Made by a program: the position numbers and the translations under genes
Virus record (IMG/VR): IMGVR_UViG_2563366820_000006
Location: 1 to 38,853 of that record
Length of the DNA stretch: 38,853 bases
Reading direction: 5' to 3' (one strand)
From: a virus
Taxonomy: Duplodnaviria; Heunggongvirae; Uroviricota; Caudoviricetes
Shown: positions 1 through 38,853 of the stretch, in pieces
Layout: each line of letters opens with the position of its first letter
Numbering within the stretch: the first letter of the stretch is position 1
The notes under the pieces: model-generated
The model's input: only the letters and a program-made list of their open reading frames with translations
Database searches by the model: none
What the model was told of the DNA's origin: nothing

Positions 1-483
1 ATGACGAAGAAAAAAGCACATAAACCTGGTTCAGCGACCATCGCGCTTAACAAGCGCGCCCGTCACGAATACTTTATCGAAGAAGAGTTCGAGGCGGGAC
101 TTGCCCTGCAAGGCTGGGAGGTTAAATCCCTGCGCGCAGGAAAAGCCAATATCAGCGACAGCTACGTCCTTCTGCGTGACGGAGAGGCATTTCTGTTTGG
201 CGCTAACATCACGCCAATGGCCGTGGCCTCCACGCATGTGGTGTGCGATCCTACCCGTACCCGCAAGTTACTTCTCAACCAGCGCGAACTGGACTCATTG
301 TACGGTCGCGTCAATCGAGAAGGCTATACCGTAGTGGCGCTCTCCCTGTACTGGAAAAATGCCTGGTGCAAAGTGAAAATCGGCGTCGCCAAAGGTAAGA
401 AACAGCATGATAAACGTTCAGATATCAAAGAACGCGAATGGCAGGTGGATAAAGCGCGTATCATGAAAAACGCCCACCGTTAA
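1..483 (+). CDS. smpB: SsrA-binding protein SmpB
   Basis: Complete 160-aa ORF recognisable as SmpB over its whole length, with the basic C-terminal tail; lies immediately upstream of tmRNA as in enterobacterial chromosomes. Confidence 0.95.
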
Positions 484-697
484 ACCTGCACTGCAATTAT
501 TGACCAGCTCCTCACCGCGCCTCCCTCTCCGGCGGCGCGAATGCACATCTTATTGGCTATCACATCCGACACAAATGTTGCCATCCCATTGCTTAATCGA
601 ATAAAAATCAGGCTACATGGGTGCTAAATCTTTAACGATAACGCCATTGAGGCTGGTCATGGCACTCATGAATCTGGTATACTTACCGTTACACATT

Positions 698-1060
698 GGG
701 GCTGATTCTGGATTCGACGGGATTTGCGAAACCCAAGGTGCATGCCGAGGGGCGGTTGGCCTCGTAAAAAGCCGCAAAAAATAGTCGCAAACGACGAAAA
801 CTACGCTTTAGCAGCTTAATAACCTGCTTAGAGCCCTCTCTCCCTAGCCTCCGCTCTTAGGACGGGGATCAAGAGAGGTCAAACCCAAAAGAGATCGCGT
901 GGAAGCCCTGCCTGGGGTTGAAGCGTTAAAACTTAATCAGGCTAGTTTGTTAGTGGCGTGTCCGTCCGCAGCTGGCAAGCGAATGTAAAGACTGACTAAG
1001 CATGTAGTACCGAGGATGTAGGAATTTCGGACGCGGGTTCAACTCCCGCCAGCTCCACCA
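698..1060 (+). ncRNA. ssrA: tmRNA (transfer-messenger RNA, SsrA), 363 nt
   Basis: 5' end GGGGCTGATTCTGGATTCGACGGG; internal tag-peptide reading frame region (GCAAACGACGAAAACTACGCTTTAGCAGCTTAA); 3' tRNA-like end GGTTCAACTCCCGCCAGCTCCACCA. Length and sequence match enterobacterial ssrA. Confidence 0.95.
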
Positions 1061-1188
1061 ATCATGATTGGACGGTGTAAGGACAACACCAACAAAAACA
1101 GGAAGTTAGCAGTCTCAGCAGGACACCGACCAGACGGTGAGGAGACAAAAAAGGATACGCAAAGGAGCCGCGGCTCTCAAGTGTGAAA

Positions 1189-1218
1189 GAAGCCCGCAAA
1201 TTGCGGGCTTTTTTATTG
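1189..1218 (+). terminator. Rho-independent terminator-like hairpin downstream of ssrA
   Basis: AGCCCGCAA-tt-TTGCGGGCT stem followed by TTTTTTATT. Confidence 0.6.
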
Positions 1219-1269
1219 ATCAGTCAACAATAAACAGTAACCGAATGAGAATTTAATAAGGATATTCAT

Positions 1270-1767
1270 ATGGAAGCTACTGTGGATTCGATTGATTTTC
1301 TGATCCGTAGTGAAGATGATTTTCTAAACTTTCTGGAAGAAATGAAAGCCCGAGAGGGGCTTGATTCTAAAGAGTTTATTTTCCCTAACGTAAAGTTTGC
1401 AGGCTGGCCATCCTTAGACATAAATGTTAAAGGAGAGCGGTATCATTCATCAATTACATCAGCAATGTTGTTTGGTATGTCAATGCTCAACGAGGAGATA
1501 CAGCGGGCGTTTGCAACCATACGATACGGATCGCAGAATCTTCAACGCTTGACTAATGAAGACAAGCAACGACTTGATATAAATTTTAAAATTAGCGAAG
1601 GTTCTAGTGATGCGGAAGGCACCACTGACAAGATCATCAACGCAGTAACTGATTTTTTGCGAGATACTATGTCTGGACTGAACGGCTGGCAGAAAATGCT
1701 TGTTATAATCACAATGGTTGGCGCGCCAGCACATGTGGTTATCACTACATTTCAGAAAATGCCGTAA
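1270..1767 (+). CDS. Hypothetical protein (AT-rich cargo; possibly the N-terminal part of a frameshifted longer gene)
   Basis: 165-aa ORF with AAGGA Shine-Dalgarno about 9 nt upstream of ATG; low GC relative to flanking chromosomal and phage structural genes; no domain recognised. Confidence 0.6.
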   Translation: MEATVDSIDFLIRSEDDFLNFLEEMKAREGLDSKEFIFPNVKFAGWPSLDINVKGERYHSSITSAMLFGMSMLNEEIQRAFATIRYGSQNLQRLTNEDKQRLDINFKISEGSSDAEGTTDKIINAVTDFLRDTMSGLNGWQKMLVIITMVGAPAHVVITTFQKMP

Positions 1768-1925
1768 CAGAAAGACATGCAACTGATCGGCAGGTTGAAA
1801 TTGCGAAAACCACATCCGATGGCATAAACAAAGCCATAGAAGCAACATTAGATTATAAAATCTATGGGAAATCAGCGATTAGCGATAAAGTTACTAGTCA
1901 CGGACAAGCAGGTAAAAGTGCTTTA

Positions 1926-2300
1926 GTGAAGCAATTAGCTGCTGATCCTACTGTCGAAACCGTGACTTTAGGAAATGAGAAACTAACACGACAAGACCTA
2001 AATACCTACAACAGCCGACAATCTGTAGATAGAGAACGTAAAGAACGAACTGATATATTTTCCATCAAAGGTGTAACCAGAACAGGGCCAACAAATCAGG
2101 ATATTAATATTAACGTTGTTAGGGTCTCTAATGACGAATGCTTCACAATCAAAGCTTCAGCTGATGTTATCACCCAAGATGAGTTGACAGCTATTGTTGA
2201 CGCTTTGTCAAACAACTCTCATATTAAAATCAGTTACTTAGAGGTAATTGAAAAGGGTGCTGTTTCTATAGGTCAGTTCAACACTATTGTTTCAGAATAA
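1926..2300 (+). CDS. Hypothetical protein (frame is open upstream to about 1653 with no ATG; may be the C-terminal part of the 1270..1767 gene via a -1 shift)
   Basis: 124-aa ORF as tracked starts at GTG; the same frame runs stop-free and protein-like from 1653, overlapping the previous ORF by about 110 nt. Confidence 0.5.
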   Translation: MKQLAADPTVETVTLGNEKLTRQDLNTYNSRQSVDRERKERTDIFSIKGVTRTGPTNQDININVVRVSNDECFTIKASADVITQDELTAIVDALSNNSHIKISYLEVIEKGAVSIGQFNTIVSE

Positions 2301-2351
2301 TCACTTAACCCCATTTATGTAGGTTGAGGTTATAAGTCACGGAGACCAGAT

Positions 2352-2696
2352 ATGTCCTTAAAGTATGCACATGAAAAATTTCATACTGCAGTACTTACTC
2401 TTGCGGGCCATGGAAGTATTCAAGAACGCTTGATTAATTCGTATGTTTTTAGCCTTGGGCATCTTAAAACAGCCGATGATATTCCAAATGCCTTACAAAG
2501 CAGGTTCGATGAATTATGTAAGGAACTGACTAAGTTTGATGCCACTGGCGATGAGGGGCGAGTTCAAGCAACAGTATCAAAACTTAACGATTTCGAGATC
2601 AATAAACTGATCGAAGATATTGTCAGTCTTAACGAAGATATTTGCATGAAATTGGCTCTGACGGATGAGACTTACCAAGACATACACCAAAGTTAA
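2352..2696 (+). CDS. Hypothetical protein
   Basis: 114-aa ORF with GGAG Shine-Dalgarno 8 nt upstream; AT-rich; followed by a terminator. Confidence 0.6.
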   Translation: MSLKYAHEKFHTAVLTLAGHGSIQERLINSYVFSLGHLKTADDIPNALQSRFDELCKELTKFDATGDEGRVQATVSKLNDFEINKLIEDIVSLNEDICMKLALTDETYQDIHQS

Positions 2697-2723
2697 TTGA
2701 TTAAATTCAAAAAGTTAACGTTC

Positions 2724-2752
2724 AACCAGCCAGTTTTTGGCTGGTTTATTGT
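2724..2752 (+). terminator. Rho-independent terminator
   Basis: CCAGCC-agttttt-GGCTGG hairpin followed by TTTATTGTCTTAT. Confidence 0.6.
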
Positions 2753-2780
2753 CTTATAATATTCTTGCTCGAATGATGCA

Positions 2781-2993
2781 CTATTTATGATGTAATCCGG
2801 ACATCAGTTCATGGACAAGATTATCTCTTTCATTGTGTTGCAACCGTAAATGCATAGCAAAAAGGTGAGCACTATCCTCATTCCTCTTCAAGCCATGCTG
2901 TTCAAGATACCCGAAAAAACGGCTTCTCTTATCCGCTATTTCCTGAGTCTGACGTGCAACATTTACCAAATTTTCTAGCGTTTTTCTTGGCAT
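2781..2993 (-). CDS. Hypothetical small protein downstream of the invertase
   Basis: 70-aa ORF preceded by a near-consensus AGGAGG Shine-Dalgarno 8 nt upstream of ATG; function not recognised. Confidence 0.55.
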   Translation of the reverse strand: MPRKTLENLVNVARQTQEIADKRSRFFGYLEQHGLKRNEDSAHLFAMHLRLQHNERDNLVHELMSGLHHK

Positions 2994-3191
2994 ACTATTT
3001 CCTCCTGAAATTGTTGTAATTCACTAGGATATTCATTTTAATTTGTATCATTTAGTACCAAAACCGCTATCAATTAACAAAGCCATCGTTGTGGTTTACC
3101 TTGCAGCCGTTTTTTGTCATTGACTCTATGTGAAAATAATGAATCATCATGAGATTGGCTCACACGTTCTTGAATTCGACGAGCTGTGTCT

Positions 3192-3746
3192 TTATTTATC
3201 TCCTGCCGGAAACCTCTGATACAAAGTCGATACGCCAACATCATAGATAATCGCAACTTTCTGGCGCGGAACTCCTGATGCAATTAATCGTCCGGCTTGT
3301 GCCCATTGTTCTGGTGTAAGTTTGGGACGACGTCCACCAATTCGTCCCTGTGCGCGAGCAGCTTCCAGTCCAGCTTTTGTTCGTTCAACAATCAGTTCTC
3401 GTTCCATTTCAGCCAGGGCCCCCATCACATGAAAGAAAAAGCGCCCCATTGGGGTACTGGTATCAATTGAATCCGTCAGACTACGAAAGTTGATGCCTCG
3501 TTCGCGCAACTCCTCCACCAGCACGACAAGATGCCGCATACTGCGCCCCAGCCGGTCCAGTTTCCAGACCACCAGCGTGTCACCTGCCGATAATGTCCTG
3601 AGCAGTTTTTTCAGTCCCGGCCTTTCGGACTTTGTACCGCTTATCTTGTCTTCAAAAATCAGCTCGCATCCTGCACAGTTCAGCGCATTACGTTGTAGAT
3701 CTGTGTTCTGGTCATTTGTTGATACGCGTACATAGCCAATAAGCAT
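3192..3746 (-). CDS. Site-specific DNA invertase, serine recombinase (Hin/Gin/Cin/Pin family)
   Basis: 184 aa starting MLIGYVRVSTNDQ (catalytic Ser region), resolvase core and C-terminal HTH; GGGGGA Shine-Dalgarno before the ATG at 3746; adjacent to tail-fibre cassettes. Confidence 0.92.
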   Translation of the reverse strand: MLIGYVRVSTNDQNTDLQRNALNCAGCELIFEDKISGTKSERPGLKKLLRTLSAGDTLVVWKLDRLGRSMRHLVVLVEELRERGINFRSLTDSIDTSTPMGRFFFHVMGALAEMERELIVERTKAGLEAARAQGRIGGRRPKLTPEQWAQAGRLIASGVPRQKVAIIYDVGVSTLYQRFPAGDK

Positions 3747-3789
3747 GGTAGATCCCCCTGACAAAAGCAGGAATGATGCCATTTGCTCG

Positions 3790-4146
3790 TTATTTCTGCA
3801 TTTTCATAAACGTTCTGTAAGCAGAATTAAAGCCGGTTAACGTTGGGCCTTCTGCAGTCATCACGAACCCTCGCCCAGCGCCTAAAGGCGCACCGCCATC
3901 ACCAGAATGAGTAAGCATGGCGCAGTCCGCTTTTTTGGGGAAAGGGATGCTAAATGTAATTCTCATTGTTTGCGTCGATAATGTCGGCGTAACCGCACCA
4001 CGACCATATTGCAGGATTTTCCCGTTGGGTAATTTCATCCATCCATCACCACTGGCAAAAGAGGCCATGTCCGGTATCTGATTTTCCCCTGTCCCTACAT
4101 CCCGTTTTGCCGCTTCTCCCAAACCAACGTCATCAACCAGCGACAC
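3790..4146 (-). pseudogene. Promoterless tail-fibre C-terminal variable cassette (S'v-like), lacking an N-terminal constant region
   Basis: 118-aa frame beginning ..VDDVGLGEAAKRDVGTGENQIPDM.., a motif typical of tail-fibre variable domains; in-frame stop a few codons upstream; overlaps a crossover-site-like sequence. Confidence 0.55.
4113..4139. repeat. Invertase crossover-site-like sequence (good left half-site only): cTTCTCCCAAACCAA
   Basis: 15 nt identical to the left half of the site at 5692..5717; matches the left half of the Hin/Gin-type consensus; the right half is degenerate. Confidence 0.5.
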
Positions 4147-4206
4147 GGTATCGATGAATTACAGTTGGTGGGCTGTTGGTGAGTAATTTTATTCAGGGTG
4201 ATTTAT

Positions 4207-4650
4207 ATGAACGAATATGTTTATAGCGCAAGGCATAATGCTTTTTTCCCTGTGGATATGATTGATAAATATAAATCAGAGGGATGGGATTTATCAGACG
4301 CTAAGGAAGTAAATCAAAATATTATCAGTGAGTTTATGGCTGAACTGCCACAAGGAAAAATCCGTATTGCCGGAGATGATGGGCTGCCTGCGTGGGCAGA
4401 GATTCCTCCACCCACGCATGAAGAACTTATTGAAATTACTGAATCAGAAAGACAGCTACTAATTAACCAAGCCAACGAATACATGAACAGTAAGCAATGG
4501 CCCGGTAAAGCCGCTATTGGTCGTCTGAAAGATGATGAACTGGCGCAATATAATTTGTGGCTGGATTATCTGGACGCACTGGAACTGGTTGATTCCTCCA
4601 GTGCGCCAGATATTGAATGGCCTGCGCCTCCGGCAGTTCAGGCCAGATGA
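4207..4650 (+). CDS. Tail fibre assembly protein (alternate, opposite-strand cassette)
   Basis: C-terminus LDYLDALELVDSSSAPDIEWPAPP is the conserved Tfa C-terminal motif; convergent and overlapping with the other tfa gene. Confidence 0.7.
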   Translation: MNEYVYSARHNAFFPVDMIDKYKSEGWDLSDAKEVNQNIISEFMAELPQGKIRIAGDDGLPAWAEIPPPTHEELIEITESERQLLINQANEYMNSKQWPGKAAIGRLKDDELAQYNLWLDYLDALELVDSSSAPDIEWPAPPAVQAR

Positions 4651-25761: not shown

Positions 25762-26778
25762 ATGTACAATTTGGATGTATCAAAAAAAGAAATCGGTAGA
25801 GTCGGTGATCGGCTCGCATCATTAGCAGAGAGTAATCAAACCCTCCCAGAGAGCGATCTTAATATTTTGCACTCGTGGAGAATGCTACATCTATATCCTT
25901 TAACTAAGCTCACTGAATATTTAACTAGAGAAGCAAATTCAATAAATCAAAATTGTTTAATATCATCAAGAATTAAACGACTCCCATCTATAATATCAAA
26001 ACTTCAACGTTTTGAAGATATGAAGCTAAACAAAATGCAGGATTTGGGGGGGTGTAGAGCTATACTTAGCAATCTTGATGAAGTATATAATACATATGAT
26101 AATATTAAAAAATTAAAATTTAAGCATCAAATAGTCAGAACAGATGATTACATTAAACAAGTAAAAGACTCTGGATATAGAAGTTTACATTTAGTTTATT
26201 CTTTTCAGAATGAGAAGCATGTTAATTTAAATGGGTTAAAAATCGAAATTCAACTCAGAACAGCTATACAACACAGTTGGGCTACTGCGGTTGAAATGGT
26301 TGGCCTTTTTAGGAAAGAATCTCTAAAATCTAGTTTTGGAGATCCTGATTGGTTACGTTTCTTTGAGCTAGTGTCAGAGTTATTTTATGGCATAGAATCA
26401 GGGAAATCCGTTGGTCATTATATGAAAACATCCAGTGACCTAAAAATATTAACAGAAAAACTCAACGTATTCACAATACTTGAAGCCTACAACAAAGTAG
26501 CAAGCCACATTGATTCCTCTGATACATACACCTCGGGTTTTTGCGTTATAATAGTCGATACAGAAAAGCGCAAAATGAATATAAAAAGTTTTCCTGTCCA
26601 TAGCCATAAAGCAGCATCTGATTTTTATATAAAAGAAGAAAAAAATTGTGAAGGGATAAAAGGATATGAGGTAGCCATGGTATCAGTTGATGATATATCA
26701 AATTTAAAAAATGCGTACCCTGCATTCTTCCTAGACACAAAAACATTCTTAAATAACCTGAGTAGATTTATTTTCTAA
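25762..26778 (+). CDS. RelA/SpoT-homologue (RSH) synthetase-domain protein; CapRel-like fused toxSAS toxin-antitoxin candidate
   Basis: 338 aa with the ordered RelA/SpoT synthetase motifs SRIKRLPSIISKL, DLGGCRAIL, GYRSLHLVY and EIQLRTAIQHSWA; about 150 aa C-terminal extension; no adjacent small ORF; AT-rich; opposite strand to the flanking Q and lysis genes. Confidence 0.8.
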   Translation: MYNLDVSKKEIGRVGDRLASLAESNQTLPESDLNILHSWRMLHLYPLTKLTEYLTREANSINQNCLISSRIKRLPSIISKLQRFEDMKLNKMQDLGGCRAILSNLDEVYNTYDNIKKLKFKHQIVRTDDYIKQVKDSGYRSLHLVYSFQNEKHVNLNGLKIEIQLRTAIQHSWATAVEMVGLFRKESLKSSFGDPDWLRFFELVSELFYGIESGKSVGHYMKTSSDLKILTEKLNVFTILEAYNKVASHIDSSDTYTSGFCVIIVDTEKRKMNIKSFPVHSHKAASDFYIKEEKNCEGIKGYEVAMVSVDDISNLKNAYPAFFLDTKTFLNNLSRFIF

Positions 26779-32366: not shown

Positions 32367-33041
32367 ATGAAAACAATCCATGACATCCGGCGGTCTAACG
32401 CCAGAAAACTGAGAGATGGTGTTGGCGGGAATTCTTCCTTTGCCACTATGATTGATCGCGAGCCAACCCAGACCAGCAGGTTTATGGGAGATGGTGCTAC
32501 TAAAAATATCGGTGACAGCATGGCACGACACATCGAAAAATGTTTCGACCTGCCTGTCGGATGGCTCGATCAAGAACACCAGACAACGAACATCACAAAA
32601 AAACCTGATGTTTCAATCACTAATAAACAAATCACATTAGTCCCTGTCATATCATGGGTACAGGCCGGAGCATGGAAAGAAGTTGGATATTCTGAGGTTG
32701 ATTTGAGCACAGCAGAAACGTATCCCTGCCCTGTACCCTGTGGGGAAATGACTTATATCTTGCGGGTGATAGGTGATTCAATGATTGATGAGTACCGCCC
32801 GGGAGACATGATTTTTGTCGATCCTGAAGTACCTGCCTGCCACGGTGACGACGTTATTGCATTGATGCACGATACAGGTGAAACTACCTTCAAAAGGTTG
32901 ATAGAAGATGGGACACAGCGTTATCTCAAAGCGTTAAACCCAAACTGGCCTGAGCCTTACATTAAGATCAACGGTAATTGCTCTATAATTGGTACAGTGA
33001 TTTTCTCAGGAAAACCAAGAAGATACAAAATCAAAGCCTAA
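32367..33041 (+). CDS. CI-like prophage repressor with S24 (LexA-type) peptidase domain
   Basis: 224 aa; N-terminal HTH-like region; C-terminal S24 features (VIGDSM .. GDMIFVDP .. KRL); no Shine-Dalgarno before the ATG at 32367, possibly leaderless like lambda cI from pRM. Confidence 0.85.
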   Translation: MKTIHDIRRSNARKLRDGVGGNSSFATMIDREPTQTSRFMGDGATKNIGDSMARHIEKCFDLPVGWLDQEHQTTNITKKPDVSITNKQITLVPVISWVQAGAWKEVGYSEVDLSTAETYPCPVPCGEMTYILRVIGDSMIDEYRPGDMIFVDPEVPACHGDDVIALMHDTGETTFKRLIEDGTQRYLKALNPNWPEPYIKINGNCSIIGTVIFSGKPRRYKIKA

Positions 33042-33448: not shown

Positions 33449-33928
33449 CTATTTGTCATTATTACACCTTTTTGACCGAGGCAAATCTCCAGCAAACCAT
33501 GCGATAACGCTATGCATGAATGATATTTCTGACTCATCAACACGTCCCAGCGCAATACAGGTCCGTTTGAACGCAGCATCTTGTAAAGATCTCCATGGAT
33601 TACTATCAGCGTCTTGAACCTTTAAAAACCGAGTGCGTAGTTCGTCATCAGAAAGGGAGGAAAACTCAACAATCAACCTTTTATACTGTCGCATCTGTTC
33701 CTTTGATAAGCCAGCTTCCTGCCCAAATTGGTATACCAATTGAAGCACCGACAAAATAGCTACAGATGCGCCAAAAATAAACATATTGCTATATGGCGCA
33801 AAAACAGAAAAGCCCAAGACAATGAGAACAAGAGTTATGCTCTTGTCTATCCGATTTAAAAGGGTGTAATTCATTTTCTCAAGAAAGAAAGAATAATGAA
33901 TATCGAATGCTAGATCGTCTCGAGTCAT
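33449..33928 (-). CDS. SieB-like superinfection exclusion membrane protein (putative)
   Basis: 159 aa; two adjacent transmembrane helices then a soluble C-terminal domain; AT-rich; located in the early-left region next to pL as sieB is in lambdoid phages. Confidence 0.4.
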   Translation of the reverse strand: MTRDDLAFDIHYSFFLEKMNYTLLNRIDKSITLVLIVLGFSVFAPYSNMFIFGASVAILSVLQLVYQFGQEAGLSKEQMRQYKRLIVEFSSLSDDELRTRFLKVQDADSNPWRSLQDAAFKRTCIALGRVDESEISFMHSVIAWFAGDLPRSKRCNNDK

Positions 33929-35727: not shown

Positions 35728-35934
35728 ATGCTGAACCTCGATTGTGTTCCTATCTCAACTTATTGCAAAGAAACTGGCGAAACTCCTGAAGCAATAAACA
35801 AACGTGTACAGCGCGGTGTTTGGCGTGAAGGTGTTCAGGTTTTAAAGGTTGAAGGCGTTAAGGAGAGGTGGATTGATCTTAGTGAGGTTGCAAAATGGGC
35901 CAGACAAAACTGCTCAAACTACCGCGCGGCGTAA
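35728..35934 (+). CDS. Excisionase-like DNA-binding protein (Xis)
   Basis: 68 aa from the ATG with GGAG Shine-Dalgarno; basic winged-helix-like sequence with conserved Trp residues; immediately upstream of and overlapping int. Confidence 0.6.
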   Translation: MLNLDCVPISTYCKETGETPEAINKRVQRGVWREGVQVLKVEGVKERWIDLSEVAKWARQNCSNYRAA

Positions 35935-37061
35935 CAATCAGGAAACACCGCCAGGGCGAAACGATCAATATAACTTTCACCTACAAAGGCGTTAAATGTC
36001 GTGAGCCTCTTTCCAATCTGGAAGTAACACCAAAGAACATTAAATACGCCGAGCGCACACTCGGCGAAATTCATAATAAGATCGAAAGGGGAACATTCAT
36101 TTATGCGGAATATTTTCCCCGTTCTGCTCGTTTGAAAATTTTTGGTAATGCTGCTGCAGGCAAAACGGTAAAAATGTACCTGGACGAATACCTTGAAATC
36201 TGCGAAACGAGAAAACTTTCACCATCTACGATTGGTGGTTATAAAAAATGCCGTAGTGCGTTAGCCTCACTCCACATTTGCCCTGCAAGTGAATTAACAC
36301 CAGCAATCCTGAAAGCGTGGATTCAAAGCCAGAAAACGACCTTAAAAACAATTCGCAACCAGTTATCTTTCCTGCGGTCAGCACTTGATGAAGCCGTAAC
36401 CGATGGGGTACTTCAAATTAACCCCGTATCGTTGGTAACTGCTTCGCGCTACCAAAGTGATAAGTCAGAAGCAGAAAGCAGCTATGTGGTTGATCCGCTA
36501 TCACCAGCAGAAGTTGATGCATTACTAGCAGCAGCCGGAAACAAACAATGGGAAAATCTGTTCCGGTTCGCCATACATACAGGCCTGCGTAGTTCTGAAT
36601 TATGTGCCCTACGATGGCATGATATCGACTTTGTTGGAAAAACAGCCCATGTTCAGAGCGCAAGTGTTGTCGGAGTTATCAAAGGAACAAAGACAAAAGC
36701 CGGTACCCGTAAAGTTGAACTGACTGAAGAAGCAATGTTGGCGTTGATAAACCAGAAGCCATTTACATTCATGAAGGATGCTACTGTCTTTGAAGATCCA
36801 AAGACCAATAAACCCTGGGCAAGTGCTGATGCAATTAGGAAAAAAGCATGGGTGCCAACATTGCGAAAAGCAGGTATTCGTTACAGAAACCCATATCAAA
36901 CCAGGCATACATTCGCCACCAGACATATCAGCCGGGGAGCAAACCTGTTTTGGCTTGCAGCTCAAATGGGGCATAAAGGGCCTGAGATGCTTTTCAGGCA
37001 CTATGGCTCATATCTGAAGGAATATGATGGACAAACAAGCTTGAAGAAGATAACAATATAA
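35895..37061 (+). CDS. Tyrosine integrase (phage integrase family)
   Basis: 388 aa; N-terminal arm-binding-type domain; C-terminal catalytic region with conserved R .. H-x-x-R .. Y pattern (..TRHTFATRH .. LFRHYGSY). Confidence 0.92.
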   Translation: MGQTKLLKLPRGVTIRKHRQGETINITFTYKGVKCREPLSNLEVTPKNIKYAERTLGEIHNKIERGTFIYAEYFPRSARLKIFGNAAAGKTVKMYLDEYLEICETRKLSPSTIGGYKKCRSALASLHICPASELTPAILKAWIQSQKTTLKTIRNQLSFLRSALDEAVTDGVLQINPVSLVTASRYQSDKSEAESSYVVDPLSPAEVDALLAAAGNKQWENLFRFAIHTGLRSSELCALRWHDIDFVGKTAHVQSASVVGVIKGTKTKAGTRKVELTEEAMLALINQKPFTFMKDATVFEDPKTNKPWASADAIRKKAWVPTLRKAGIRYRNPYQTRHTFATRHISRGANLFWLAAQMGHKGPEMLFRHYGSYLKEYDGQTSLKKITI

Positions 37062-37079
37062 TCCAAGCATGAAACTATT

Positions 37080-37103
37080 GGCCACAATTTGTGGCCATTT
37101 TAC
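37080..37103 (+). terminator. Hairpin / terminator-like element after int
   Basis: Perfect palindrome GGCCACAA-t-TTGTGGCC followed by ATTTTAC. Confidence 0.45.
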
Positions 37104-37119
37104 GGAGCAAGATAGAAAC

Positions 37120-38853
37120 ATGGCAAATCAAATTACCAAACTAAAAAATATAAATGTTGTGAAGTTTCGCGGACTGAAAAATATAAACATCGAGTTTGGT
37201 TCTCGCCTAACTGTTATTTGTGGTAAAAATGGCACATCTAAATCCACAATTCTTGGCATTATCGCCCAAATATTTAGCTTTACAAAGGACTTTACCAAAA
37301 ACCCTGAGACTGATTTAACACAATATAAAACATTAACAAATGGCAGCTTCAAGTCAGCTTTCAGCGAACATTTTAGGCTTTCAGAACAATTTGATGTTCC
37401 TGGTTCAATGGACGTCAAAATTAGTGTCTATGATGGTGCATCGAACAAACATCTTGAAAAACTAACATTAGGTTTATACAGCTACAGTGACAGAGATAAA
37501 TCAAGGCCTGTAGTCAGGGGAAATGATTCAATACCGGAAAAAAACCAAAGTAGAAACGTTACTCATCCTGTTATTTTTTTAAGCTTAGCACGACTTCTTC
37601 CTATTACATTAAGGACTGATTACTCAACACGGGATGTTCAGTACATCAATGAAAATTCTGATGAAATCAGAATGATGAGTAACCAACTCTTACTAAAAAA
37701 CAATGGAAGCTCAGTAACAGCAACAAAAGGTACTATCGATTCAATGGTTGTCCATGGTGACAATTATGATCACCAATCAGTATCTGTTGGTGAAGATAAT
37801 GTTGGACAATTAATCCAAGCAATTTTTTCATTTAAAAGATTGAAGGAAACTTATTCTGATTATCATGGCGGAATATTGTTAATTGATGAAGCCGATGCAG
37901 GTCTTTTCCCTGCTGCACAGTTAGAGCTAATTAATATTCTAACTAAAGCAGCAAAACAATACGATCTGCAAATAATCATGACCTCGCACTCTCCATTAAT
38001 AATAGAGGATATCTATAATCGTTCAAAACAAGATAGTGATAGCTTTAAAACAATATATCTTACAGACACATATGGAGATATTAAAACAAAGAATAATCTT
38101 TCATGGACAGATATCCACGCTGATTTACATGTTGAAACTGTAAAAATTAATGATGACATTTGTCTTCCAAAGGCAAATGTATATTTTGAAGACAAAGAAG
38201 GTTTCGACTTTTTCAAACAATTGATAACAGATCGTAAAATAAATAAAATATTAAATCCATTAGGGAATATAAATATTAGCTGCTCTGCCATGCTTGACTT
38301 AATGGCAAGAAAAATACCAGAATTTACAGCTAAAAGCTTGATCGTCTTAGACGGTGATGTTGTTCACGACAATAGTGCTAATGCAAAAAAAGCCAAAAAA
38401 GAAAAAAACTTATGTTTGCTTCCAAGCACCTTACCTCCAGACCAAATGATTTTTGAGTTTTTATATAATTTACCACCTGATGATGCATATTGGGAAAATA
38501 AAAATAAATTTACAAAAGCTGTTTTTATGAAAACAGCTAAAGACATAATTGCAACGCTAAAGATTGGTAACGCTCCGATTGATTTAAAAATCCTTATAGA
38601 TAATTATAAAAAAGTTAACAAAAACCATGGCGGGATAGTTAGAAAACTGTTTAAAGATTTTGCACATACGACTCAATTTCAGGCCCAAGTAAAAGGGCGA
38701 GTTAAAGATAACCCATATCGATATTGGGTCGAGAAAAATCCTGTGCAATCGGATAGCTTCAAGAATGAACTAATAAAGAGTCTTAAAGTTATTATGACAA
38801 GTGGACATGGTGTCGATTCTGCTACCATCTCATCATATCTGTCAGATAACTAA
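37120..38853 (+). CDS. ABC-type ATPase fused to a C-terminal TOPRIM-like domain (OLD-family-like; P2 Old / PARIS-like defence candidate)
   Basis: Start taken at MANQITKLKNINVVKF (tracked ORF starts at 37069). Walker A GKNGTSKST; Walker B ILLIDEADAGL; H-loop-like MTSHSP; C-terminal acidic motifs YFEDKEG and LIVLDGD about 45 aa apart. AT-rich; ends at the window edge. Confidence 0.75.
   Translation: MANQITKLKNINVVKFRGLKNINIEFGSRLTVICGKNGTSKSTILGIIAQIFSFTKDFTKNPETDLTQYKTLTNGSFKSAFSEHFRLSEQFDVPGSMDVKISVYDGASNKHLEKLTLGLYSYSDRDKSRPVVRGNDSIPEKNQSRNVTHPVIFLSLARLLPITLRTDYSTRDVQYINENSDEIRMMSNQLLLKNNGSSVTATKGTIDSMVVHGDNYDHQSVSVGEDNVGQLIQAIFSFKRLKETYSDYHGGILLIDEADAGLFPAAQLELINILTKAAKQYDLQIIMTSHSPLIIEDIYNRSKQDSDSFKTIYLTDTYGDIKTKNNLSWTDIHADLHVETVKINDDICLPKANVYFEDKEGFDFFKQLITDRKINKILNPLGNINISCSAMLDLMARKIPEFTAKSLIVLDGDVVHDNSANAKKAKKEKNLCLLPSTLPPDQMIFEFLYNLPPDDAYWENKNKFTKAVFMKTAKDIIATLKIGNAPIDLKILIDNYKKVNKNHGGIVRKLFKDFAHTTQFQAQVKGRVKDNPYRYWVEKNPVQSDSFKNELIKSLKVIMTSGHGVDSATISSYLSDN

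Follow-up and report, generated by a model that had tools for sequence, protein, structure and literature searches.

The superinfection exclusion protein SieA of phage P22 resides in the inner membrane and alone blocks DNA delivery, and its single prophage-expressed gene is necessary and sufficient in P22 (Leavitt et al. 2024, PMC10883804). Another prophage-encoded protein, the abortive-infection protein BstA, acts at the sites of phage DNA replication (Owen et al. 2021, PMC8585504). Here we describe a locus in a stretch of 38,853 nucleotides (nt) from Escherichia coli KTE146 (IMG/VR virus record IMGVR_UViG_2563366820_000006), hereafter the window. Close to the left end of its prophage, at positions 1270-2300, the window carries one gene of the family phrog_6191, coding for a protein of 343 amino acids (aa), from which a single G has been lost. 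In its intact form the gene probably encodes a membrane-anchored exclusion protein expressed in the lysogen; the copy in the window would be inactive.

By analogy, P22 SieA would be the nearest functional model for the 343-aa protein. Both are products of single, prophage-borne genes; unlike SieA, to which no homology is detectable, the 343-aa protein has a large N-terminal domain plus an OB fold. The comparison with RexA/RexB of lambda rests on position, since homologues of the 343-aa gene are found co-oriented directly after a cI-type repressor and before N, and on a membrane component, which is present in Rex and putative in the 343-aa protein. In contrast to Rex, which consists of two genes, the 343-aa system consists of one, and the two share no sequence or profile similarity. 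Homology with RexA/RexB was rejected, as hhalign of a 61-sequence profile gave probabilities of 0.3% against lambda RexA and 0.4% against RexB. RexB has four hydrophobic helices, compared with one in the 343-aa protein. The gene bstA is reportedly located downstream of the prophage repressor. The 343-aa protein has no BstA or KilA-N match in PADLOC, Pfam or PHROGs, and is predicted at the membrane, whereas BstA acts at replication sites. A fourth comparison concerns gtrABV of the phages SfV and SfII, which shares with this locus the slot beyond the tail-fibre genes, the convergent orientation, the terminator at the end, the adjoining attachment (att) site and the character of low-GC lysogenic-conversion cargo; in SfV the equivalent slot holds gtrV-gtrB-gtrA plus a terminator. 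The gtr genes modify the O-antigen, whereas no glycosyltransferase or flippase domain is present in the cassette of the 343-aa gene.

The disrupted gene is made up of the following open reading frames (ORFs) and features:

1270-2300, plus strand: disrupted 343-aa phrog_6191 gene, composed of the ORF 1270-1767 and the frame open over 1653-2300
1270-1767, plus strand: first ORF, 165 aa, with AAGGA 8 nt before the ATG
1926-2300, plus strand: second ORF, 124 aa, with a GTG start
1724-1725, plus strand: deletion of one base, with a G absent from GGCGCGGCCAGC; codon 152/153, within the hydrophobic helix

An earlier note, made from the sequence alone, had described a cassette of three ORFs on the same strand (1270-1767, 1926-2300 and 2352-2696). 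All three are present in the ORF list; they represent, however, two plus-strand genes instead of three, the first two ORFs being one. Following a stop at 1650, the second frame runs open from 1653 and overlaps the first ORF by 115 nt (1653-1767), in agreement with that note. Its proposal that both belong to one gene of about 340 aa holds as well, as adding one base yields a protein of 343 aa. The cassette was searched by megablast in 5,426 complete E. coli genomes and found in 46. In every one of these the matching stretch is one base longer than the window and contains a single annotated hypothetical protein (343 aa), which is the fused ORF that the earlier note had advised looking for in homologous loci. 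In E. coli 042 and NWU_1 the gene is a coding sequence of 1,032 nt (WP_021530618.1, 343 aa), and with the G inserted the translation of the window is identical to the protein of E. coli 042. The missing G is the only indel in the pairwise alignments of the window to two related loci (L001 and L002), and besides it one substitution in 1740 nt separates the cassette from that of the nearest complete genome. Among 76 word-indexed homologues none is split into two frames; most have 333-377 aa, and 11 are shorter (192-311 aa), matching part of the query only. Full-length matches among the best 150 of 832 cluster representatives have about 300-400 aa.

The previously suggested shift site, CAG_AAA_ATG at 1753-1761, is not where the frame changes. 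The lesion at 1724/1725 is situated about 30 nt upstream, in the context GGCGCG[G]CCAGC, which is GC-rich and non-slippery. A programmed -1 ribosomal frameshift, giving products of both 165 and 343 aa, would agree with the overlap of the two frames over 115 nt (1653-1767) and with the A-rich CAG AAA ATG near the end of the first ORF. Yet one continuous ORF is found in 46/46 complete genomes and in the homologues, the two-frame layout is not conserved, no X_XXY_YYZ heptamer occurs, and the lesion, 30 nt before the A-run, is a deletion of one nucleotide at a non-slippery sequence. Since every complete relative has one ORF and the lesion is of this kind, programmed recoding appears excluded for practical purposes from the sequence comparison, and we regard it as extremely improbable.

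The other two options given in the earlier note, a pseudogene or a sequencing indel, were the right pair: the frameshift is either a private inactivating mutation in KTE146 or an assembly error. The truncated 165-aa product (ELG87080.1, A311_03273) is on record only for E. coli KTE146, on one contig, while for an intact variant the count reaches at least 1,000 contigs, which come from E. coli, Salmonella, Citrobacter and Klebsiella. With an assembly error, the chromosome of KTE146 would carry an intact gene and the missing G would be an artefact of the draft. The restriction of the allele to one contig of one draft genome, the near identity of the remaining cassette to the nearest complete genome and the GC-rich GCGCGGCC context of the lesion are consistent with this. 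Conversely, the window itself bears no mark of low quality, and other disrupted alleles exist: the 124-aa C-terminal fragment was called on 8 contigs, and in a Logan assembly (L017:124-1156), which has other indels too, the gene is split elsewhere into 112 and 210 aa. A real inactivation of the 343-aa gene would thus not be unusual. An assembly error is a possible, though somewhat doubtful, explanation. The other broken alleles are themselves either real recurrent inactivations or sequencing errors; recurrent inactivation, if real, would hint at a fitness cost. As assembled, the gene of KTE146 would encode the N-terminal domain plus half a helix, a product predicted to be non-functional. Whether it is a private lesion of one base or an assembly error, the frameshift of this single strain is nothing unusual; the interest of the locus lies with the intact gene.

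The 343-aa protein has a full-length match to phrog_6191 (E 6.8e-38), in which its residues 7-340 align with positions 5-331 of the 338 in the profile, and all 61 members of a set of diverse homologues match this profile as well (best E 1e-107). phrog_6191 is a PHROG of unknown function. The family comprises 832 clusters at 50% identity and reaches beyond the Enterobacterales to Pseudoalteromonas and Pseudomonas putida, with a further member at the locus L019. Within PHROGs, phrog_6191 was the sole match of the 343-aa protein and no annotated exclusion family was hit, whilst a sequence profile search of the PDB returned weak matches only, all over membrane anchors. An alignment of 27 sequences resulted in a poor model (predicted local distance difference test, pLDDT, 65), for which Foldseek retrieved weak OB-like matches only. 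With 61 sequences a confident AlphaFold model was obtained (pLDDT 86.6; predicted template modelling score, pTM, 0.75), with these segments:

residues about 8-135: N-terminal alpha/beta domain
from residue 139: helix with the hydrophobic stretch
residues 156-175: disordered linker
residues 174-225: helical hairpin of two long helices
residues 229-340: C-terminal beta-barrel (OB fold)

In this model the C-terminal domain is an OB fold, with a five-stranded closed beta-barrel, an inter-strand helix and matches to solved OB folds; the best of these structural matches are OB proteins that are secreted or located in the periplasm. Conservation is highest in the N-terminal domain, and the helical and OB part is more variable. 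With the exception of one serine, the residues conserved at a level of 70% or more across the family are structural ones, which argues against an enzyme, and the structural model suggests binding rather than catalysis. The hydrophobic stretch occurs in the same alignment column in 60/61 members, its sequence not being conserved, and reaches a Kyte-Doolittle hydropathy (KD) of at least 1.6 in 43 of the 61. Judged from these profiles, it is a probable single transmembrane helix. An N-in/C-out topology was assumed, because no signal peptide is present.

The homologues are located in two kinds of positions. In lambdoid phages and prophages, the homologue of the 343-aa gene is co-oriented with and directly 3' of a cI-type repressor gene. 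This arrangement is found in phi458, where the gap amounts to 25 nt, in PhiR12_2, where the protein is annotated as 'T2SS GspM containing protein', in two loci of Yersinia and in Photorhabdus. On three metagenomic contigs the homologue lies between the repressor and N, and this position is the slot of rexA-rexB in lambda. The window's own copy is located at the att edge and not behind cI. Other homologues likewise occupy the extreme edge of a prophage, with their 5' end toward the host flank: beside ssrA in E. coli 042 and Mangrovibacter, as in the window; beside a yejM-like gene in Enterobacter and Serratia; adjoining an invertase in Citrobacter; and between icd and a lambda-type integrase in Scandinavium. 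About 1.1 kilobases (kb) downstream of the Cronobacter homologue, another unannotated ORF of 343 aa with several hydrophobic segments was observed (L011:7157-8188). Its sequence differs from that of the homologue, and three different islands are followed by this same right-hand flank.

As homologues reside behind cI or at the att-proximal edge, we infer that the intact 343-aa gene would be expressed in the lysogen and would protect the host from other phages. The protein would be anchored at the inner membrane by its one hydrophobic helix and would act non-enzymatically there, binding or blocking a component of the incoming phage. Exclusion by binding at the inner membrane is the proposal that agrees best with a single gene in lysogeny-associated slots, the probable anchor, the lack of a catalytic signature, the conserved N-terminal module and the greater variability of the helical and OB part.

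Several results weigh against this proposal. No family of PADLOC-DB v2.0.0 (systems up to 2023) matches the 343-aa protein; with the 61 homologues PADLOC gave just three single-member matches (E 0.005-0.01) and Pfam scattered single-member noise only. Pfam and NCBIfam contain no match above noise for the 343-aa product or for the 114-aa and 70-aa products encoded next to it, and the earlier note had likewise recognized no domain in the products of its cassette; PADLOC was empty for all three proteins too, and PHROGs for the 114-aa and 70-aa ones. A literature search on the accessions, phrog_6191, phi458 and PhiR12 found no functional data, and no paper in which the accessions or phrog_6191 are named. 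The helix of the window allele is only moderately hydrophobic (KD 1.41) and is interrupted at residue 153 in the deep AlphaFold model, and the high pTM of 0.75 could mean that the domains are packed as a compact soluble protein with no membrane between them. The positive-inside rule is undecided, with 26 members in favour of one orientation and 21 of the other. Finally, the predicted expression in the lysogen finds no counterpart in a sigma-70 consensus promoter, none of which was detected between the terminator at 1186-1214 and position 1270.

The same slots and the same helix would also suit a Rex-like abortive infection, in which a cytoplasmic domain senses infection and the membrane helix oligomerises and depolarises or kills the cell. 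Homologues occupy the rexAB slot behind cI, a single hydrophobic helix is conserved, the OB fold could bind phage nucleic acid if it were cytoplasmic, and the recurrent disrupted alleles might reflect the cost of such a function. However, a lone helix of moderate hydrophobicity would make a poor pore, the OB domain is closest in structure to periplasmic or secreted proteins, and the hhalign probability for RexA/RexB stays below 1%. Such a mechanism is unlikely in our view. A function outside defence, either in conversion (envelope, stress or colonisation fitness) or in the phage cycle, e.g. in lysis-lysogeny regulation, appears improbable to a similar degree. It would agree with the presence of non-defence morons such as gtrABV of SfV in the same slots and with the roles of the periplasmic OB proteins CusF/SilF and YgiW in metal and stress handling. 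Membrane-anchored exclusion accordingly stays the preferred explanation of the 343-aa gene. More tentatively, phrog_6191 as a whole may represent a widespread, unrecognised family of single-gene exclusion or defence proteins, which temperate phages of Gammaproteobacteria would exchange in the rexAB slot and in att-proximal slots. Its members would be anchored in the membrane, combine a conserved N-terminal module with a variable OB domain and target a component of the incoming phage without enzymatic action. The family is unannotated, contains several hundred clusters and recurs in two slots of protective genes, including the rexAB position. The 343-aa gene is hence a cheap and well-defined candidate for a new single-gene exclusion or defence function, and natural alleles for comparison exist both intact (E. 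coli 042, phage phi458) and broken (KTE146).

The left end of the prophage and the neighbourhood of the gene comprise these features:

1-483: smpB, at the start of the window
698-1060, plus strand: ssrA (tmRNA), found by ARAGORN and with 295.8 bits by the Rfam model tmRNA
1186-1214, plus strand: strong intrinsic terminator after ssrA, -19.3 kcal/mol, z -5.8, followed by a U-run
2352-2696, plus strand: acidic 114-aa ORF (WP_000054185.1-like), called by the annotation pipeline PGAP, with GGAG 7 nt before the ATG
2724-2746, folding on both strands: hairpin terminator between the convergent 114-aa and 70-aa ORFs
2781-2993, minus strand: basic 70-aa ORF (WP_021530619.1) with an AGGAGG ribosome-binding site, downstream of pin
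3192-3782, minus strand: pin, serine invertase (Resolvase and HTH_7, Pfam E 1.8e-51), named pinE in NWU_1
2575-2600: Pin site a, GTATCAAAACTT-AA-CGATTTCGAGAT, within the 114-aa ORF near its codon 79
3800-3825: Pin site b, just upstream of pin, a breakpoint in the sibling prophage L032
4115-4140: Pin site c, at the start of the C-terminal segment of the tail fibre, a breakpoint in L032

All DNA to the right of ssrA belongs to the prophage, whose structural genes are 97% identical to those of SfII, SfI, SfIV and SfV, a group of Mu-tailed, lambdoid-early phages of Shigella and E. coli. The sibling locus L032, in which another integrase-bearing element comes first, is homologous to the window from 1025 onward, so that the attachment core corresponds to the 3' end of ssrA, namely its last ~36 nt (1025-1060). 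The cassette therefore lies inside the first 2 kb of prophage DNA. The 343-aa gene is located about 210 nt inside the left end of this SfV-like myovirus prophage at the ssrA 3' end, and the terminator after ssrA ends 55 nt upstream of its start codon (1270). No second copy of the ssrA 3' end exists within the 38,853 nt, hence the other end of the prophage is beyond 38853. An Rfam scan of positions 1-4300 detected the tmRNA only. The GC content of 1216-2760 (0.386) is below that of smpB-ssrA (0.513) and of the tail and head genes (0.545), as the earlier note had stated. Its terminator at the end of the cassette was recovered by the scan as a hairpin at 2724-2746 plus a T-run (-14.6 kcal/mol, z -4.3). 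Concerning its Shine-Dalgarno sequences, AAGGA before 1270 and GGAG before 2352 are present, whereas nothing convincing precedes 1926. With positions 1061-2800 as query, a part matches 4,170 of the 5,426 E. coli genomes at 80-95% identity, compared with 46 for the cassette itself; the widely matching part is presumably the post-ssrA trailer and terminator (1061-1215) of different ssrA-integrating elements.

The 114-aa and 70-aa ORFs raise the question of a multi-gene system. The 70-aa ORF, which was absent from the cassette as first described, is annotated in other genomes. The 114-aa variant of KTE146 is ELG87081.1 (A311_03274), and only six close homologues of this ORF were found; in a tblastn search of 50,697 phage records neither protein had a match. 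If the 343-aa gene formed one system with the 114-aa gene, and perhaps with the 70-aa ORF too, this could be, for example, a toxin-antitoxin pair or a defence effector with its regulator or immunity protein. The two genes are co-linear with a gap of 51 nt and a shared terminator and occur side by side in 46/46 E. coli genomes. The pair is also found in L031 at 87% nt identity, there followed by a SRAP/YedK-like gene instead of pin. Codon differences from L031 number 19 synonymous and 18 non-synonymous in the 114-aa ORF, and 14 and 3, respectively, in the stretch of the 343-aa gene next to it. With a ratio of non-synonymous to synonymous substitution rates (dN/dS) estimated at ~0.3, the 114-aa ORF is probably coding and fast-evolving.

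These points are countered by the distribution of the neighbours. The 114-aa ORF is missing beside every 343-aa homologue of 82% identity or less, and the pairing is seen only at 87% nt identity or more. No homologue of the 114-aa or 70-aa protein stands beside the gene in Mangrovibacter (80% identity) or Cronobacter (82%), and the neighbours are absent in Citrobacter, Yersinia, Enterobacter, Serratia, Photorhabdus, the lambdoid phages and the metagenomic contigs. Furthermore, a Pin site inside the 114-aa ORF would allow its 3' end to be exchanged, which would be odd for an essential partner. From this distribution we conclude that the 114-aa and 70-aa ORFs are likely lineage-restricted additions and not obligatory partners. 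Together with the lack of toxin and antitoxin domains this argues against a toxin-antitoxin module, and a multi-gene system seems quite unlikely. The evidence supports the 343-aa gene as a stand-alone accessory gene (moron). The earlier note had called the position typical for defence or toxin-antitoxin cargo: the slot is indeed a typical one for accessory and defence cargo, given gtrABV in SfV and the rexAB slot elsewhere, while the toxin-antitoxin part is unsupported.

The serine invertase next to this cargo resembles the Hin/Gin/Cin/Pin switches (Mu G segment, e14 P region, p15B Min) in that it lies beside alternative tail-fibre C-termini and assembly genes and has crossover sites with 12-nt half-sites around an AA core; the ORF 3790-4146 neighbouring site c is a Gp53-like_C protein. 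Unlike in those switches, one site is placed outside the fibre genes, inside the 114-aa ORF, so that pin and the 70-aa ORF are on an invertible segment. Relative to the window, the sibling prophage L032 (4535-6130) has the segments 2594-3810 and 3815-4125 each inverted in place, and its three junctions have a common AA-CG core with Hin/Gin-like half-sites around it. Pin can therefore invert a segment that holds its own gene together with the 70-aa ORF, the terminator and the final 36 codons of the 114-aa ORF, and inversion at site a creates a variant of the 114-aa ORF with 122 aa. A tail-fibre invertase can thus also rearrange adjacent cargo. One draft E. coli genome (L032) carries the inverted form, compared with 0/46 complete genomes; since all 46 have the orientation of the window, inversion at site a is rare, and site a is possibly a secondary site. 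A circular 'plasmid' record of 2,637 bp (NZ_CP148395.1, L035) corresponds to positions 1177-3812 of the window, exactly the cassette and pin, in a genome that has no chromosomal copy. Its interpretation as a genuine excised circle was rejected, as the ends coincide with the ends of the record and one of them, at 3812, is inside site b. Most likely it is an assembly-graph fragment caused by the inversion polymorphism plus the repeated post-ssrA sequence.

Elsewhere in the window, a 159-aa ORF with hydrophobic stretches (33449-33928, minus strand) is convergent with the prophage's own cI-type repressor gene (32367-33041), in a rex-like slot; it has no Pfam or PADLOC match. Two defence-type genes occupy other moron positions of the same prophage. 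The first (25762-26778, plus strand) is oriented against the late genes around it and encodes a 338-aa protein with a RelA/SpoT domain. The protein has a full-length match to PDC-S33, a candidate defence family of PADLOC (E 1.9e-114), and the gene looks like a toxSAS/CapRel-type prophage defence gene. The second (37069-38853, plus strand) begins 8 nt after the integrase gene (35895-37061) and runs past the end of the window. It encodes an AAA_15/AAA_21 ATPase of more than 594 aa, whose best PADLOC matches are PtuA, GajA and AriA, and is a second defence-type cargo between int and the right att site beyond the window.

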